Shown piece after piece: positions 12,303 to 54,817 of a stretch of DNA of 62,504 bases. Position numbers and translations under genes: made by a program. The stretch's first letter is position 1; every line of letters begins with the position of its first letter. The stretch is from a virus (taxonomy: Duplodnaviria > Caudoviricetes), in IMG/VR virus record IMGVR_UViG_3300032320_000789, positions 1-62,504 of that record. The stretch is one strand, 5' to 3'. The notes under the pieces were generated by a model, which saw only the letters and a list, made by a program, of their open reading frames with translations, had not been told where the DNA came from and did not search any database.

Positions 12303-13241
12303 ATGGGATTAGAAATTTCTGGAGTGACTTTTTCTGGCGGTACTAATATAGCATTTGATCCACCACCAATTACTGTACAATATCTAGTAGTAGCTGGCGG
12401 TGGTGGTGGAGGAACATCAGCCCCAGCACCCGGAGCAGGTGGTGGCGGTGGTGGTGCCGGTGGTGTTTTACAAGGATCGACATCTATGACTGCTGGTGTA
12501 AGTTATACTATTAATGTAGGCGGCGGCGGCAGCGGAGCCACAGTAGAAGGTACCCTTGGTCAAAGTGGAAAAAATAGTAATATTGCTGGAGCAGGATTTA
12601 GCACTCTTGATGCTGTTGGCGGCGGCGGCGGCGCTCCCTCAATAAATGGCAATGCTACCCAACTATCCGGAGGAACAGGCGGATCTGGTGGCGGTTCTAA
12701 TAATGCTAATGGTGCCACAGGTGGATTAGCTACAGGAAGTCCTGGAGTTAACATAGCAGGAACTCAAGGCTATCCTGGCGGAAGTCCAATTGGTGGATCA
12801 AACGGTAGCCCAGGCGGTGGTGGTGCCGGTGGTTCTGGGGCTAGTGTAAATGGTTGTCCTGGCGGAAACGGTGGTAACGGATATACATGGCCGTTTACAG
12901 GAGCAACTTATGGTGGTGGCGGTGGTGGTGGTGCTCAGGGTGGTCCCAAAGGTTTTGGCGGCCCTGGCGGCGGCGGAAATGGTGGCAGTTTCGTTCCTGC
13001 GCAGACCGCAACTTCGGGTACTAATGGTCTTGGCGGCGGTGGTGGTGGTGGGTCATATCCCGCAGGTACAGCCGGTGCCGGTGGGTCTGGTACAGTTATA
13101 TTAGCCGTGCCGACACCAAGTTATCCAGGTTCAGCTCCGGGTGCGACAGTAACAACTCCTCCTTCGGCTCCGGGCCGTACAGTATTAACTTATACAGCAG
13201 CAAGTCCATTAACTCCAAGTACATTTACATACACAGCATAG
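12303..13241 (+). CDS. Glycine-rich virion/tail-fibre-like protein (paralog of 53645..54817)
   Basis: VQYLVVAGGGGG...GGGGAGG; C-terminus GTVILAVPT..YPGSAPGATVTTPP..APG.TVLTYT. Confidence 0.75.
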   Translation: MGLEISGVTFSGGTNIAFDPPPITVQYLVVAGGGGGGTSAPAPGAGGGGGGAGGVLQGSTSMTAGVSYTINVGGGGSGATVEGTLGQSGKNSNIAGAGFSTLDAVGGGGGAPSINGNATQLSGGTGGSGGGSNNANGATGGLATGSPGVNIAGTQGYPGGSPIGGSNGSPGGGGAGGSGASVNGCPGGNGGNGYTWPFTGATYGGGGGGGAQGGPKGFGGPGGGGNGGSFVPAQTATSGTNGLGGGGGGGSYPAGTAGAGGSGTVILAVPTPSYPGSAPGATVTTPPSAPGRTVLTYTAASPLTPSTFTYTA

Positions 13242-39708: not shown

Positions 39709-40461
39709 ATGTTTAAAAATCATGACGAATCACACCAACACAGTTTAGAAGTATTAAATGCTCTAGGTCAATACGAAGATTTTATGTTGTCTATTAAAAC
39801 TTTAGCCGACATTGGATGCGGAGCAGGAAAAGATTTAGTATGGTGGGCTACTCGCACCACAAACGATGAATATGCAACTCCACTTAATATACAATGTCAA
39901 GGTATAGATATCTTAGATAATCTTGCAATCGCTAAAGATTATCAAAATATCACTTATCAAAAAGTAGATTTTGAATCAAATATCTATCCACCGCACGATA
40001 AATTTGATGTATTGTGGTGCCACAATTCTTTCCAATATGCAGTAGATCCAATTAAAACATTATCAAATTGGAGAAATATTACCAGCGATGGTGCTATGCT
40101 GGCTATAATGATCCAACAAACTACTAATATGCATCATAAAGATCTAGATTTTAGTCAGCAGGACGGTTGCTATTATCACCATACCATAGTAAGTCTTATC
40201 CATATGCTAGCTGTGACCGGGTGGGACTGTAAATCTGGATTTTTTAAAATAGATCCAGTGAACAATTGGATCTATGCTATAGTATATAAAAGCAATCAAG
40301 AACCTAAAGACCTAAAAACTGTTCGTTGGTATGATTTAGTTGAGGCTAAACTACTCCCTGACTCGGCTGACAAATCAGTGCTAGCTAGAGGATTTTTACA
40401 TCAGCGAGATCTAGTATTACCCTGGTTGGATAAGAGCCTACAGTGGCTTGGTGCCCAATAA
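39709..40461 (+). CDS. Class I SAM-dependent methyltransferase
   Basis: ADIGCGAG, FDVLWCHNSFQY. Confidence 0.75.
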   Translation: MFKNHDESHQHSLEVLNALGQYEDFMLSIKTLADIGCGAGKDLVWWATRTTNDEYATPLNIQCQGIDILDNLAIAKDYQNITYQKVDFESNIYPPHDKFDVLWCHNSFQYAVDPIKTLSNWRNITSDGAMLAIMIQQTTNMHHKDLDFSQQDGCYYHHTIVSLIHMLAVTGWDCKSGFFKIDPVNNWIYAIVYKSNQEPKDLKTVRWYDLVEAKLLPDSADKSVLARGFLHQRDLVLPWLDKSLQWLGAQ

Positions 40462-40798: not shown

Positions 40799-41827
40799 AT
40801 GTCTACAATTTTGATTAAAAATGGGTCGTATCGCAATCAACCTGTAAGCGGTATGATTTTTAATTTAGTAAAAGGTTATCAAACTGGAGCCAAAGGAGGC
40901 TATGTGACAGTAAAAGCAGATGGCTATTTTGGCCCCGATGTACCTGAAGTAGTTCGTATCAAAGTAAGTTCAATTGAAGATTTAGAATTTACTAACGAAT
41001 CAATGCCGGCTAACGATTTTGTTGCGCCAATCGTAACTAAGCCTGTAGTTGAGTCAGACGACGAAATTATGGACCGTATTGAACAACGATTTGAAATTTT
41101 ACACCAAATGACTCGTGCTACAATTTCAGGCGATGTTCGCGCTATGATTGTAGTTGGTCCCCCGGGTGTTGGTAAGTCATACGGTGTTGAGTTTGAACTT
41201 GAGAAGGCAGGGTTATTTGATAAAATCTCGGGTAAGAAAGTCAAGTATGAAGTAGTCAAAGGTGCGATGACTCCGATTGGTTTATACTGTACCTTATATC
41301 GTCATTCCGATGCTAACAACGTTTTAGTATTTGACGATTGCGACTCGGTATTCCAAGACGAATTGGCGCTTAACATTCTTAAAGCCGCATTAGACTCTGG
41401 TAAGAAGCGTAAAATCCACTGGAACTCTGATAGTGCTATGTTACGCCGCGAGGGTGTTCCGGATATGTTTGACTTTAAAGGTGGCTGTATTTTTATTACC
41501 AACTTGAAGTTTGATAATCTTAAATCTAAGAAAATGCAGGATCACTTAGAAGCATTACAGAGTCGATGCCACTTTTTGGATTTAACTTTGAACACAATGC
41601 GTGACAAATTCTTGCGTATTAAACAAATTTTCCGTCAAGGTCAATTGTTCAAAGACTATGATTTTAGTCCGGAACAAGGTGAAGAAATCCTAGCATTTAT
41701 GGATTCGAACAAAGATCGATTGCGTGAAATGTCTTTGCGTATGGCGCTTAAATTAGCCGACTTAACCAAAGTATCACAAAGTAATTGGAAGGCTTTGGCG
41801 GCTAGTACTTGTATGAAGAATAGCTAA
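40799..41827 (+). CDS. AAA+-type P-loop ATPase
   Basis: GPPGVGKS, VLVFDDCD, IFITN, ALQSRC; AAGGAG RBS. Confidence 0.8.
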   Translation: MSTILIKNGSYRNQPVSGMIFNLVKGYQTGAKGGYVTVKADGYFGPDVPEVVRIKVSSIEDLEFTNESMPANDFVAPIVTKPVVESDDEIMDRIEQRFEILHQMTRATISGDVRAMIVVGPPGVGKSYGVEFELEKAGLFDKISGKKVKYEVVKGAMTPIGLYCTLYRHSDANNVLVFDDCDSVFQDELALNILKAALDSGKKRKIHWNSDSAMLRREGVPDMFDFKGGCIFITNLKFDNLKSKKMQDHLEALQSRCHFLDLTLNTMRDKFLRIKQIFRQGQLFKDYDFSPEQGEEILAFMDSNKDRLREMSLRMALKLADLTKVSQSNWKALAASTCMKNS

Positions 41828-43422: not shown

Positions 43423-43450
43423 TTGACAAAATTAAATGTGATGTTACAAT
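43423..43450 (+). promoter_or_regulatory. sigma70-like promoter
   Basis: TTGACA-16-TACAAT, 6 nt before ATG 43457. Confidence 0.55.
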
Positions 43451-43456
43451 AACAAT

Positions 43457-43957
43457 ATGAGAATACTAACTTTAGACAACGAACCATACGATTTAGATCA
43501 TCTTCCTGAAGAAGTAGATGATATGCGTTTTAGTATTTTGGATAACTCCAATCCACAAGATCCGGACTATCACTACATTCCATTAATTTTTTTAGAAAAT
43601 TTTAATGCTCCTGCGTTAGTATTAAAAATTGGTGAACATAAAATCCGTATGCCTGTTGACTGGCAACTATTAATCGGTGAGCCAGATTTCGGTGACTTAG
43701 AAGTTATACCATTGTCGGCACTTAATGATCGTGGATTCAAAGCATTTCAGTTTAATCCAATATCTAGTTTTAGACCAAGTTTTCTTGATGTAGAAATTTT
43801 AGATGTCTATCAGGATGTAGCATGGTATGCTCCTAAACTTAAAAATGGACAAATGCTATGCGTTCCAATAAGTGACGGTAAAGAACCAGAATGTGTATAT
43901 TTTGTCAAAGATATCAGTCGCACTTGTGAAGTAGTAGATTATAATAAGGCATTTTAA
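43457..43957 (+). CDS. Hypothetical all-beta protein, possibly a degenerate Hint fold
   Basis: VLKIGEHKIRMPVDWQLLIG, VIPLSALNDRG pattern reminiscent of Hint blocks; inference only. Confidence 0.55.
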   Translation: MRILTLDNEPYDLDHLPEEVDDMRFSILDNSNPQDPDYHYIPLIFLENFNAPALVLKIGEHKIRMPVDWQLLIGEPDFGDLEVIPLSALNDRGFKAFQFNPISSFRPSFLDVEILDVYQDVAWYAPKLKNGQMLCVPISDGKEPECVYFVKDISRTCEVVDYNKAF

Positions 43958-43960
43958 TTT

Positions 43961-44407
43961 GTGGATAAGCTAAGTATTAATAACGAAATGACGCAATTTG
44001 ATCGTAAAAATCGTGATTTTTACGACAGTTTAACTGACGAGGAGCGTAAAAAATTCTCTACATTTTTAATGATTAGATATGGTAGTAGTGTAAACGGCAG
44101 TAGAGATTTACAAGAATTTTATCTTATTTCTACAAATGAACGACTTAACAAAAATTTTTTCCCCTTACATAAACATCCTAAATTGCAATGGCTATTGGCA
44201 ACTACTGTCAGTCCAGGCATGGGAACCTTTAGACACAATTGGATTGCTACAAAAAAGAAAGAACCAGGCGCTGGTAGTATTAAAAAACAAATTGCTGAAC
44301 TATATCCACATTTAAAAGATGACGAAATAGATTTAATGTCAAAAATTAATACTAAAAAAGATATAGATGCATACATGAAAAAATTAGGACAGGAGAGTAA
44401 AAAATGA
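43961..44407 (+). CDS. Clamp-loader small subunit (T4 gp62-like)
   Basis: FSTFLMIRYGSSV, NERLN, HPKLQWLL, HNWI.TKKK. Confidence 0.6.
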   Translation: MDKLSINNEMTQFDRKNRDFYDSLTDEERKKFSTFLMIRYGSSVNGSRDLQEFYLISTNERLNKNFFPLHKHPKLQWLLATTVSPGMGTFRHNWIATKKKEPGAGSIKKQIAELYPHLKDDEIDLMSKINTKKDIDAYMKKLGQESKK

Positions 44408-44631
44408 TTTGGTTTTTTTCAAAAAAATCGGAACCAGGCTATAAGCAAGTAGAATTTGTTGACAAGGACGGTACTGTATTTAGATACAAGCCTGTAAAAA
44501 ATATTACAGCCAACGAAGTTGCTAGACTTTTGCCGTTGTTTTTAAATCCAAATGCTACCCCAGCAGATTCGATTGCTTATATTAAAAAAGAAAAATTAGA
44601 ACGAAACTTTGCTATTAATCCAGAAGAATGA
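44404..44631 (+). CDS. Hypothetical protein
   Basis: ATGA overlaps on both sides; AGGAG RBS. Confidence 0.55.
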   Translation: MIWFFSKKSEPGYKQVEFVDKDGTVFRYKPVKNITANEVARLLPLFLNPNATPADSIAYIKKEKLERNFAINPEE

Positions 44632-45302
44632 GTCATACATGCCAGTATTGTAAGAAGAATTTTATCAAAGAATCTTCTTTGGCAATTCATTCTTGTGAGC
44701 CTAGAAGACGAAGACAAGAAAAAGATGAAGCTGGTGTTAGATTGGGATTCAATTCTTATTTAAAATTCTATGAGCTAACACAAGGATCAGCTAAACTAAA
44801 AACATATGATGATTTTTGCGAAAGCCCTTATTACAAAGCCTTTGTAAAATTTGGTAGATATTGTGTAAGTACAAAAGTTATCAACCCAGCTCGCTTTACA
44901 GAATGGGTGTTAAAACAAAATAAAAAATTAGACTATTGGTGTAGTGACAAACTTTATGAAGAATATTTACTATTCTATCTTAAAGTAGAGCGTATGGAAG
45001 ATGCGTTGGCTCGTGGCATAGAACACGCCTTAACTTGGGCCGAGGAAAAAGAGGCACCGTCCCAAGATTATCTGCGTTATGGCAATCATAATGTAATTAC
45101 TAGTGCCATAGTCAACGGTCGTATAAGTCCGTGGATATTATATAATTGCGAATCTGGTCAAAAATTTTTAGCTGAAATGAATACTGAACATCAAACAATG
45201 GTATGGTCATATATAGATCCTGATGTATGGACTAAAAAATTAAAAGACGATCCAGCAAATCGTATAGAAGCACAAGAACTATTGCAAAAGGCCGGTTGGT
45301 AA
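44628..45302 (+). CDS. Zn-finger-containing hypothetical protein
   Basis: CQYCKKNFIKESSLAIHSC. Confidence 0.7.
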   Translation: MSHTCQYCKKNFIKESSLAIHSCEPRRRRQEKDEAGVRLGFNSYLKFYELTQGSAKLKTYDDFCESPYYKAFVKFGRYCVSTKVINPARFTEWVLKQNKKLDYWCSDKLYEEYLLFYLKVERMEDALARGIEHALTWAEEKEAPSQDYLRYGNHNVITSAIVNGRISPWILYNCESGQKFLAEMNTEHQTMVWSYIDPDVWTKKLKDDPANRIEAQELLQKAGW

Positions 45303-45889
45303 TGTCAGCAGATATCGATATTGATTTAGCAGACCGAGAACAAGTTTTAAGACTTATTCAATCGATACCAGCACGACAATTGCATCAAGGTCAAATTCGA
45401 AAACATAATTCAGGAGTATATGTTACTGATATTCCGTATGATCCAGTCAATCAATGTGCGGCTATTACTTACGAAGAAGCGGAAACTCGTGGATATTTTA
45501 AAATTGATTTACTAAACATGTCAGTTTATCAGCTAATTAAAAGCCCGGAACATTATGAGGAAATGCTAAAAAAAGAACCACCCTGGGGAAGACTATGGAC
45601 TGACATCGAGTGGTCAAAACAACTAGCTCATGTAGGAAATTACACTGACTTAATAGTAAAAATGAAACCCGATTCAATTCCAAGAATGGCGGCTTTTATC
45701 GCAATTATTCGACCAGGTAAAGCACACTTACAGAACAAACCTTGGAATGAAATATTTGAATCTGTGTGGGATGGAGACGATAGTAAAGGGTTTGTCTTTA
45801 AAAAGTCGCATAGTCTTAGCTACGCAATGTTAGTTGCACTACATATGAATTTACTGGATGAAATCAATCCATCCGGCGCACTAAAGTAA
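45302..45889 (+). CDS. Miniature family C (DnaE/Pol III alpha-like) polymerase catalytic core
   Basis: Start reassigned to the TAATG overlap; DIDID, KHNSGVY, GYFKIDLL, AIIRPG, FKKSHSLSYA in DnaE order. Confidence 0.75.
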   Translation: MSADIDIDLADREQVLRLIQSIPARQLHQGQIRKHNSGVYVTDIPYDPVNQCAAITYEEAETRGYFKIDLLNMSVYQLIKSPEHYEEMLKKEPPWGRLWTDIEWSKQLAHVGNYTDLIVKMKPDSIPRMAAFIAIIRPGKAHLQNKPWNEIFESVWDGDDSKGFVFKKSHSLSYAMLVALHMNLLDEINPSGALK

Positions 45890-46241
45890 TACTTTTCCTT
45901 TTGGATTTTTTGCGTCCTATTTCAGCTAGACTACACACTGGGCCGTGTAGGATTTCAAGATCTTTATTAATAAATGTACGCAGATAAACTCTAAACGGGT
46001 CCCATTCTTGTTTTAAATAGATATTAATGGGTATTGATCTGTTACTTTCCCACCACCAAACATTAGCTAATTCTAAGAATAATTTTTTTACTTCTAAATC
46101 TGCTATACTACCAAAATCATAGATAGTAGTAACAACATCGTCTCGATTCTGTATTATCCCTACATATTCTTGGGAGGAGTAGAGACACAGCGTTATAAAC
46201 GGGTATTTGTCAGTTAATTTTTTAAAGATTTCTGCGTTCAT
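45864..46241 (-). CDS. Hypothetical phage protein
   Basis: 125 aa; WWWESNRSIPINIYL; reverse ATAAATA at 46265-71. Confidence 0.7.
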   Translation of the reverse strand: MNAEIFKKLTDKYPFITLCLYSSQEYVGIIQNRDDVVTTIYDFGSIADLEVKKLFLELANVWWWESNRSIPINIYLKQEWDPFRVYLRTFINKDLEILHGPVCSLAEIGRKKSKRKSITLVRRMD

Positions 46242-53644: not shown

Positions 53645-54817
53645 ATGTCATTAACTATTGGATCAGGATTTAATGTAGGTGCTGGATTTAGTATTTCAGT
53701 GGCCCCAACAGCCGTAGCAGGAGCTACATCAACGGTATCGGCAACTCAAAACACAGCTATCACTAGTTTTAATCCATTTAGTAGTGTTACTGGTGGAATT
53801 GCCCCATATACATATTATGTTAGTTCAGGCACACTACCTACTGGCATAGCTATCAATCCTAGTACCGGATTAGTATCGGGTACTCCCACAGTTCTTCAAT
53901 CGTCTGCCAATGTTGTATTTTCTGTACGCGATGCCGCCAATTCTGTAGCTACAACAACTTCTACCGTTAGCTTTGCTGTAACAACTCCTCCTATTAGCGT
54001 ACAATATCTAGTAGTAGCTGGAGGGGGCGGAGCTGGCACAGCTGGTGGTATCACTGGCGAAGGCGGAGCAGGTGGAGCTGGCGGAGTTGTACGAGGTTCA
54101 ATTACAACTAGCAGTGGCACACCATTTACTTTACTTATTGGCGCCGGCGGTGCTGGTGGTACCGGGTGGTCGCCTGGCAGTAATGGCGCCAATAGTACTA
54201 TAAGTTCTCCGATTGTAACAACAATCACGGCCGCAGGCGGTGGTAGCGGCAGTTGGGGCGGCAAATGTGGTCAAGGGGGGCTTTTTCCTTATAATGGAGG
54301 CAACGGTGGCTCGGGTGGCGGCGGCTGTATTGCTGGTACAGGAACACAGCCTACTTTAAATCCTGGAAATCCAACAGTAGTACAACAATACGGAAACCCA
54401 GGCGGAGCCGGTCTTGGTCCAGCAAACGGCGCTGGCGGCGGCGGCGCTGGCGGAGCCGGCACACAAGGCACTGGATCCGGTGGTGGTGGCGGAGCCGGAT
54501 ATACTTATCCTTATACAGGAGGCACTTACGGGGCAGGCGGCCCTACTAACCCCGTCACCTGGGGCACCAACTCAAACGGTACAAACGGCAATTTAGGTAG
54601 TGGTAATGGAGGGCAGACCAGCACTGGCATTAACGGTTCTAGCATAGCTGGTTCCGGAGGTCCTGGCACAATTATACTAGCTGTGCCGACTCCTAATTAT
54701 CCAGGGTCAGCACCTGGTGCTACTGTAACTACTCCACCAGCAGCACCAGGAATGACAGTATTGACTTACACAACACCAAGTCCTGGTACTCCAGCGTCAT
54801 TTACTTACACAGCATAA
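53645..54817 (+). CDS. Ig-like (He_PIG) + glycine-rich virion protein (paralog of 12303..13241)
   Basis: GGIAPYTY.VSSGTLPTGIAINPSTGLVSGTPT; VQYLVVAGGGG; shared C-terminus. Confidence 0.75.
   Translation: MSLTIGSGFNVGAGFSISVAPTAVAGATSTVSATQNTAITSFNPFSSVTGGIAPYTYYVSSGTLPTGIAINPSTGLVSGTPTVLQSSANVVFSVRDAANSVATTTSTVSFAVTTPPISVQYLVVAGGGGAGTAGGITGEGGAGGAGGVVRGSITTSSGTPFTLLIGAGGAGGTGWSPGSNGANSTISSPIVTTITAAGGGSGSWGGKCGQGGLFPYNGGNGGSGGGGCIAGTGTQPTLNPGNPTVVQQYGNPGGAGLGPANGAGGGGAGGAGTQGTGSGGGGGAGYTYPYTGGTYGAGGPTNPVTWGTNSNGTNGNLGSGNGGQTSTGINGSSIAGSGGPGTIILAVPTPNYPGSAPGATVTTPPAAPGMTVLTYTTPSPGTPASFTYTA

Follow-up and report, generated by a model that had tools for sequence, protein, structure and literature searches.

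A probable C-terminal half of a split, minimal DnaE-type enzyme in the replication module of a jumbo phage lineage

Can a protein one sixth the length of DnaE form part of a working DNA polymerase? We examined this question for a gene at positions 45302 to 45889 of the 62,504-nucleotide viral record IMGVR_UViG_3300032320_000789 (hereafter, the window), which is the entire IMG/VR record and has a CheckV completeness of 18%. An original prediction, made from the DNA alone, had read this open reading frame (ORF) as a miniature family C polymerase core with DnaE motifs, either a minimal or split enzyme whose missing functions come from co-transcribed proteins or a repurposed nucleotidyltransferase. 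Our comparisons indicate that the ORF very probably encodes the C-terminal half (C-half) of a split enzyme of the phage lineage of RaK2, PA5oct and Atu_ph07 (group 2.2), whose N-terminal half (N-half) is a separate gene in relatives of the window.

A DnaE-like protein of 195 residues

The gene in question is the following:

45302..45889, + strand: putative C-terminal subunit gene of a split, minimal DnaE-like (DNA polymerase III alpha, Pol III alpha) enzyme; 195 residues; assigned from phrog_11778, invariant Asp residues, PDB profile matches, and an AlphaFold2 (AF2) model with its Foldseek matches.

The ORF is an intact open frame, and the first base of its ATG (45302-45304) is also the last of the TAA stop codon (45300-45302) of the preceding ORF, 44628..45302 (TAATG). 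Along the product, the motifs D4-I-D6-I-D8 (residues 4-8), K34-H-N-S-G-V (34-39) and K67-I-D69-L-L (67-71) are followed toward the C-terminus by R137-P-G (137-139) and then F165-K-K-S-H...S-Y-A (165-176). We aligned the window protein with 83 full-length representatives of 27-61% identity and found that D4, D6, K67, D69 and P138 were invariant (84 of 84 sequences), so that the three catalytic Asp positions have no exception, while D8, H35, G38, R137, K140, K167 and H170 were conserved in at least 90%. The two finger motifs, RPG (R137, P138) and FKKSH (K167, H170), are among these positions. The first residues read M-x-x-DIDID, placing the start of the protein three residues ahead of the DxD strand.

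Sequence profiles and structure prediction both led to DnaE. The PHROG profile phrog_11778 (‘DNA polymerase’, 197 positions) matched residues 3-188 of the ORF (E 9.4e-56), and the sole Pfam signal was DNA_pol3_finger, below threshold (E 0.14). While a PDB search with the single sequence returned chance matches only, the 84-member profile gave nine distinct matches to PDB sequences at E <= 10, all nine of them Pol III alpha (E. coli, Thermus aquaticus and M. tuberculosis; best E 3.8e-6). Profile positions 54-139 fell on E. coli DnaE 539-641 (K553-F-D555, with the RPG turn at 636-641), equating K67 and D69 with K553 and D555, and positions 150-179 fell on 739-769 (FNKSH); hhalign of the profile with E. 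coli DnaE covered residues 541-642 (E 6.6e-5). The AF2 model was compact and confident (predicted local distance difference test, pLDDT, 94.9; predicted template-modelling score, pTM, 0.88), and its Foldseek ranks 1-14 in the PDB were all DnaE (E 3.2e-3 to 0.23; query template-modelling score, TM, 0.42-0.54). PolC was found at lower ranks (E 0.35 vs 3e-3 for DnaE), and MenT and TUTase only far down (E > 1). The motif pattern is far beyond chance, and the protein is a DnaE homologue.

We then examined selection on the gene. All of the 159 related loci had a frame free of stops over at least 90% of the C-half. Among the 60 closest pairs (the sample used for each gene), the ratio of nonsynonymous to synonymous differences per site (pN/pS) had a median of 0.188 and a maximum of 0.234, and the corresponding rate ratio (dN/dS) had a median of 0.080 (12 computable pairs). 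The C-half gene is under purifying selection and has no sign of decay. The ordered DnaE motifs, the intact frame, the TAATG coupling and the DnaE fold that the original prediction had seen or proposed are all borne out.

A near-identity DNA search of phage genomes gave no match, and a translated search found the C-half in 96 phage-genome records, all below 60% identity. Among the matches listed, the records were jumbo phages of 284-490 kb, except for one of 85.7 kb. Identity was 45% to PA5oct-like Pseudomonas phages, 41% to Sinorhizobium phage Phosso, 39% to Agrobacterium phage Atu_ph07 and about 35% to RaK2-like Klebsiella, Escherichia and Erwinia phages, in which GenBank labels range over ‘DNA polymerase’, ‘DNA polymerase III alpha’, ‘DnaE-like DNA polymerase III alpha’ and ‘hypothetical protein’. 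The IMG/VR loci retrieved were at most 84% identical to the window C-half, and one protein cluster is 99% identical to it. Environmental jumbo phages carry the family in great numbers: searched exhaustively, 1.84 billion representatives yielded 363 clusters (50% identity) at E <= 1e-3 and 233 at E <= 1e-10, and a word-indexed search scored no fewer than 7,981 clusters at the 90% identity level.

Around the gene, the window carries a T4-like replication and recombination module of large terminase, a gp32-like single-stranded DNA-binding protein (SSB), UvsX, UvsY, an AAA+ ATPase and UvsW; after uvsW comes the block with the C-half, and then a DnaG-type primase and a DnaB-type helicase. Passages of Iyer et al. 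2021 (Viruses 13:63, PMC7824862) describe, for the jumbo phages of group 2.2, a minimal Pol III alpha split into a C-terminal unit of ~190 residues (Mg2+- and template-binding parts) and an NTP-binding N-terminal unit from a distant gene. It co-occurs with a T4-like family B polymerase and T4-like replication genes, and without the remaining Pol III domains. The window C-half is the family described computationally in that work and is already annotated in public phage genomes. New here are the precise position of the break on the E. coli DnaE sequence, the natural fusion of both halves, their separation by ~100 kb in the sub-lineage of the window, the selection figures and the fold of a neighbouring standalone Hint protein.

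A separately encoded N-terminal half

Since the C-half starts three residues before DxD, it lacks the beginning of the Pol-beta-like palm and with it the Gly-Ser nucleotide-binding loop; the ORF is not the complete miniature core that had been proposed, and it was the suggestion of a split family C enzyme that proved right. In relatives the GRGS loop is on the N-half protein. In Atu_ph07 this is gp316, named ‘DNA polymerase III alpha subunit’ in a passage of PMC6102473; it is not homologous to the window ORF, and it lies at 241 kb, with the C-half homologue of the same phage at 58 kb. The 177-residue gp316 has the C-terminal end ‘...GVGRGSCVSSYILYIIGVHKVNSIKYDLDFSEFLE’ (‘...GVGRGS...FSEFLE’), and the precomputed Pfam match PF07733 was present on 33 of 33 gp316 relatives found, all with a common end point. 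Aligned by hhalign, the N-half profile covered E. coli DnaE 268-394 (probability 95%; E 3.4e-8). Past this match E. coli DnaE continues as PERVSMPDFDVDF (residues 394-406), and within that stretch, FLNPERVSMPDFDVDF, a six-residue linker precedes D401. The E. coli sequence thus continues where the N-half stops, so the two halves abut before D401, with no overlap and no room for intein fragments.

Evidence that the two pieces belong together is provided by a natural fusion (P0185; 375 residues), in which an N-half (E 2e-18 to gp316) is followed by a C-half at residues 190-373 (‘ADFDIDTKNRE...’).

We searched the 62.5-kb window for an N-half of its own and detected none: a PF07733 scan left no candidate at E <= 10, tblastn with gp316 gave nothing under E 0.4, and hmmsearch with all filters off on every open frame of at least 30 residues gave a best E of 0.48. 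We extended the search to nine IMG/VR records from relatives, with 68-79% identity between their C-half and that of the window. The N-half was present in four of the nine, exactly the four most complete (99, 61, 51 and 43%), and the five records without it are 25-42% complete. Those four records carry both halves on one strand, at a distance of 95-108 kb. The N-half was downstream of the C-half in the single case whose orientation was checked, and past its own C-half the window extends for just 16.6 kb. In named phages the C-half and N-half are 34-44 kb apart (PA5oct, 144.0 vs 187.5 kb; Muenster, 236.9 vs 271.7 kb; pEa_SNUABM_49, 210.1 vs 243.9 kb). A complex prediction combining a relative's N-half, the window C-half and the product of the neighbouring ORF 44628..45302 gave a score of 0.09 (mark, 0.32) and speaks neither for nor against an assembly.

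The N-half gene has an upstream neighbour of ~185-200 residues both in a close relative (G001; L085:915-1514) and in Atu_ph07 (gp317; L004:46378-46932), the likeness of the two being judged by eye from a ‘...FIDS..’ stretch only. In G001 this neighbour and the N-half gene overlap, and its product could be a further partner.

What else of a replicase do these phages carry? No family B polymerase was found in the window, but the 99%-complete relative (an 886-residue family B ORF) and the 51%-complete relative, two of the nine related records, each have one, and Atu_ph07 encodes one in two genes. The mini-DnaE therefore does not take the place of a family B polymerase, as relatives carry both. 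The original prediction had also called for a search for PHP fragments, and here the outcome was negative: the PHP domain (PF02811) had no match at E <= 1 in the 99%-complete relative, and the window ORF is too short for one. The helix-hairpin-helix (HhH) family HHH_6 (PF14579) likewise had none at E <= 1 in that relative, where the N-half is the only match of PF07733. Within the C-half, ~45 residues separate the DxD and KxD strands, compared with ~135 in E. coli (406-540).

On balance, we favour the explanation that the ORF encodes the C-subunit of a two-piece, minimal DnaE-type enzyme that acts as a small auxiliary DNA polymerase. The C-subunit would contribute the strand with two metal-binding Asp residues (D4 and D6, corresponding to E. 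coli D401 and D403), the third Asp and its lysine (D69 and K67, corresponding to D555 and K553) and a strongly reduced finger region with RPG and FKKSH. An N-subunit of ~170-180 residues, encoded by a distant gene beyond the window, would contribute the opening portion of the palm, GRGS nucleotide-binding loop included (E. coli 268-394), and the break would fall in the short linker between ‘...FLR’ and ‘DIDID’. Since the junction has no space for intein pieces, the two proteins would assemble non-covalently into one active site. The assembled enzyme would be a small, low-processivity, template-directed DNA polymerase of family C with a Pol-beta-like palm, and it might serve beside the T4-like family B replicase in the module of UvsW, UvsX, UvsY, primase and helicase, with repair, gap filling and recombination-dependent synthesis as conceivable tasks. 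Judged from sequence, it is likely that the pair is catalytically active, and the chance that this activity is templated DNA synthesis is about even or slightly better. The data show homology, fold, invariant catalytic residues, a partner gene, a fused form and purifying selection; assembly and activity, dNTPs and a template as substrates, and the role in the phage are inferred.

Several points weigh against this explanation. Thumb, beta-clamp-binding, HhH and OB parts of DnaE hold primer-template DNA, as crystal structures of 2006-2008 revealed. These parts appear to be missing from the phage halves (OB was not searched for separately), and templated synthesis by ~365 residues is thus not assured. 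The Foldseek E-values of the C-half are modest (3e-3 upward, at query TM 0.42-0.54), its profile and hhalign alignments reach only residues from ~54 on, and the equation of DIDID with E. coli D401/D403/D405 draws on the motif and the fused form, not on a scored alignment. Fused forms are rare, P0185 being the single one among the 150 representatives listed, and fused (longer) relatives were absent from the word-based search, which is weak evidence. The partner gene lies outside the window, and its presence in this phage is deduced from relatives. For selection, saturation at synonymous sites (median pS 0.80) left a finite dS for just 12 of the 60 pairs. Finally, a literature search turned up no experimental study of the split mini-DnaE.

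Many of the same observations bear on the idea that the two-piece assembly forms, yet is a repurposed Pol-beta-like nucleotidyltransferase and not a templated polymerase; it might add untemplated nucleotides to DNA or RNA ends, nucleotidylate proteins or make a nucleotide signal. All the DnaE domains that grip primer-template DNA and the clamp are missing, as seen in the absence of PHP and HHH_6 matches from the 99%-complete relative and in the ~45 residues that replace E. coli 406-540, and a family B replicase is, judging by relatives, already in the phage. Nucleotidyltransferase toxins and terminal transferases are also in the Foldseek list of the C-half, though far down (E > 1). Yet the DnaE/PolC-specific RPG and FKKSH motifs are kept at 90-100%, DnaE alone gives the best structure and sequence matches, and the gene sits in a replication and recombination module (SSB, UvsX, UvsY, UvsW, primase and DnaB). 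We consider a repurposed transferase unlikely, albeit a serious contender.

The conserved gene block and the weaker alternatives

The C-half gene lies in a compact block that comprises the following neighbours:

43423..43450, + strand: sigma-70-like promoter (TTGACA, 16 nt, TACAAT, with TG) in the gap between uvsW and the gene at 43457
43457..43957, + strand: Hint-fold (intein/Hedgehog-like) standalone protein as modelled, 166 residues; first gene after the promoter-like site; without splicing residues
43961..44407, + strand: conserved protein, function not assigned, 148 residues; GTG start; phrog_11758
44404..44631, + strand: small accessory or doubtful ORF, 75 residues, overlapping 43961 at its start and 44628 at its stop
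44628..45302, + strand: C2HC zinc finger (N-terminal) with helical remainder, function not assigned, 224 residues; phrog_11058; overlaps the polymerase start
45864..46241, - strand: conserved convergent gene, function not assigned, 125 residues; phrog_11637; its 3' end overlaps the polymerase 3' end by 26 nt

The order uvsW, 43457, 43961, 44628, C-half, convergent gene, structural gene, primase and DnaB was kept in 159 IMG/VR loci, judged wherever the contig extends far enough, and the same order, with insertions, was found in RaK2, Phosso and Paride. In phage genomes, the C-half and the 43457, 43961 and 44628 families had nearly equal spread (96, 94, 92 and 89 records), which fits functional linkage but fits inheritance as a core block equally well. 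Selection on the three neighbour genes was similar to that on the C-half (median pN/pS 0.13-0.27).

The protein encoded at 43457 had been called Hint-like, and its predicted fold supports this. The AF2 model is all-beta (pLDDT 86.8), and the first 38 rows listed by Foldseek for the PDB were all inteins, bacterial intein-like (BIL) domains or Hedgehog proteins (best E 8.2e-4; TM 0.5-0.6; probability 0.80-1.00). In BFVD, the matches included intein-bearing terminases, ribonucleotide reductase and DnaB, and for two of the proteins in that database the fold agreed at TM 0.85-0.89. Self-processing Hint domains use an N-terminal Cys or Ser, a block-B His and a C-terminal Asn. The 43457 product begins M-R/K-I-L-T, without Cys or Ser at position 2, and has no host protein around it; no invariant His was present in 21 sequences of three clades. 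On its model, the product is a standalone, splicing-incompetent Hint-fold protein. By sequence it had no Pfam match, its family profile gave nothing meaningful against PDB sequences, and the ESM Atlas returned virus-only hypothetical clusters and nothing else for both the 43457 and 44628 products. Conservation of the family exceeds that of the polymerase (at 80% identity, 10 clusters vs 40 for the C-half), and a term search of the main text of Iyer et al. 2021 (PMC7824862) gave no mention of such a neighbour. The 43457 homologue is always the first gene after uvsW.

The label of zinc-finger protein for 44628 was likewise confirmed: all 32 sequences have C5, C8, H21 and C23, and the family profile matches C2H2 fingers at residues 2-24 (best E 3.1e-4), the other ~200 residues matching nothing. 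A similarity of this family to E. coli DnaE 344-410, from GRGS to DxD (probability 0.55%; E 0.11), was rejected as chance, as it vanished against the N-half and C-half profiles. The reading of 43961 as a clamp-loader subunit found no support. Its product had no Pfam match and a sole PHROG match, phrog_11758, which has no assigned function; hhalign with T4 gp62 gave a probability of 1.3% (E 0.04), and its profile had one chance-level match among PDB sequences (tRNA ligase; E 0.35) and no match to a clamp loader, the solved T4 one included. The 75-residue ORF 44404..44631 is without Pfam or PHROG match; it has a homologue in only 5 of the tallied locus gene orders, and the flanking genes abut in most relatives.

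The promoter-like site before 43457 agrees at 11 of 12 positions and sits in the sole intergenic gap. Such sites are not above chance across the region (11 vs 13.5 expected), and the strict pattern occurs upstream of the 43457 homologue in 52 of 115 related loci. By its position, the putative promoter agrees with a single transcription unit from 43457 to 45889. At the other end of the block, the overlap of the convergent gene with the polymerase gene measures 26 nt in 69 of 155 loci and 17 to 30 nt in 50 more, and the convergent gene occupies the same position in RaK2, Phosso and Paride.

We next weighed whether the block could be an accessory set: the 43457 product, a domesticated intein relic, would dock or assemble the halves, and the C2HC finger of 44628 would grip nucleic acid in place of thumb and HhH, making a modular family C polymerase of four or five small proteins. 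We regard this as highly improbable. Little credence is likewise due to the proposal, made in the original prediction, that the 195-residue protein is a self-contained core for which the co-transcribed products of 43457, 43961 and 44628 supply DNA binding, clamp contact and assembly. The order of genes kept in 159 loci and in RaK2, Phosso and Paride, the occurrence of the families in nearly one set of phage records, the stop/start overlap in the window and a zinc finger that could bind nucleic acid are all in its favour. Against it, the missing catalytic piece is demonstrably encoded by a gene that in four relatives lies 95-108 kb off, and the profiles of the three neighbours are unlike DnaE or either half (probabilities at most 0.6%). 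Moreover, of 151 related loci, 65 have the 44628 homologue directly against the polymerase gene and 86 have at least 0.3 kb between the two; shared ancestry of core genes would yield the same spread, too. Insertions at this junction range from 0.3 kb to more than 0.5 kb, and it is seemingly an insertion hot spot, with a 121-residue ‘virion structural protein’ in RaK2 and three small genes in Phosso.

That the gene is a decaying remnant of a full-length dnaE or encodes a catalytically dead scaffold is scarcely credible: the protein has one sixth of the DnaE length and its Pfam match is below threshold, but the frame is open in 159 of 159 loci at a pN/pS of ~0.19, the family comprises 363 representative clusters at E <= 1e-3, the three Asp are invariant and the model is compact and confident, so that decay is practically excluded.

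Other features of the window lie outside this block. In a single comparison (E 0.004), an ‘LQSRC’ stretch of the AAA+ ATPase of the module (40799-41827; phrog_1250, no assigned function) fell on the SRC motif region of T4 gp44. This protein also has a weak clamp-loader PHROG match (E 0.0084) and was not similar to the clamp loader annotated in Atu_ph07; perhaps it is a divergent ATPase of clamp-loader type. The 250-residue product of 39709-40461 has a weak methyltransferase PHROG match (E 1.3e-6), and its marginal similarity to the C-half profile (E 0.012) was taken as chance. A motif scan also found two proteins (12303-13241 and 53645-54817) with long glycine-rich runs after a common ‘...VQYLVVAGGGG...’, and an N-terminally truncated large protein (2-2572) with repeats of the type ‘NGLGQLGLNDT.NRSSPVQVG’, RCC1-like in look.

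Significance and comparison with known systems

The mini-DnaE family is the smallest known version of the catalytic module of the bacterial replicase. Should the two halves together yield a functional polymerase, they mark out the smallest active site of family C, and with them one could study, in a simple setting, the path from a Pol-beta-like palm to a replicase and the task of a second polymerase next to a T4-type replisome. The remaining questions on the split mini-DnaE are biochemical rather than genomic.

With bacterial DnaE (E. coli 2HNH; Thermus aquaticus 2HPI, 3E0D and 4IQJ; M. tuberculosis 5LEW and 7PU7), the phage protein has in common the three-Asp, Pol-beta-like palm, the KxD and RPG motifs and the FNKSH-type motif. 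The phage halves together have ~365 residues compared with ~1160, divide the catalytic domain between two polypeptides and are without PHP, thumb, beta-binding/HhH, OB and tau-binding parts, with the same proviso for OB as above. PolC differs from DnaE in its domain order and has an inserted exonuclease. With PolC of Firmicutes (3F2B), the phage protein has family C and the same palm in common, and the fold match is weaker than that to DnaE.

In cyanobacteria, each of the DnaE halves carries an intein fragment, and they are spliced to full-length DnaE. As in the cyanobacterial system (Synechocystis and Nostoc; PDB 1ZD7 and 4KL5), a dnaE-type gene is present in the phages as two distant genes; however, the phage N-half ends ‘...FLR’ and the C-half begins ‘M-x-x-DIDID’, with no intein fragment and at another break point. 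Structures of the cyanobacterial DnaE inteins are fold matches of the neighbouring 43457 product, not of the polymerase.

The closest counterpart is found in group 2.2 jumbo phages, in their split minimal Pol III alpha. The window, which comes from an uncultivated relative, shares the family (35-45% identity; phrog_11778) and the gene neighbourhood, and both the separate N-unit and the family B polymerase of that group are here seen in relatives. The halves are ~100 kb apart in close relatives of the window and 34-44 kb apart in the named phages checked; nothing essential differs.

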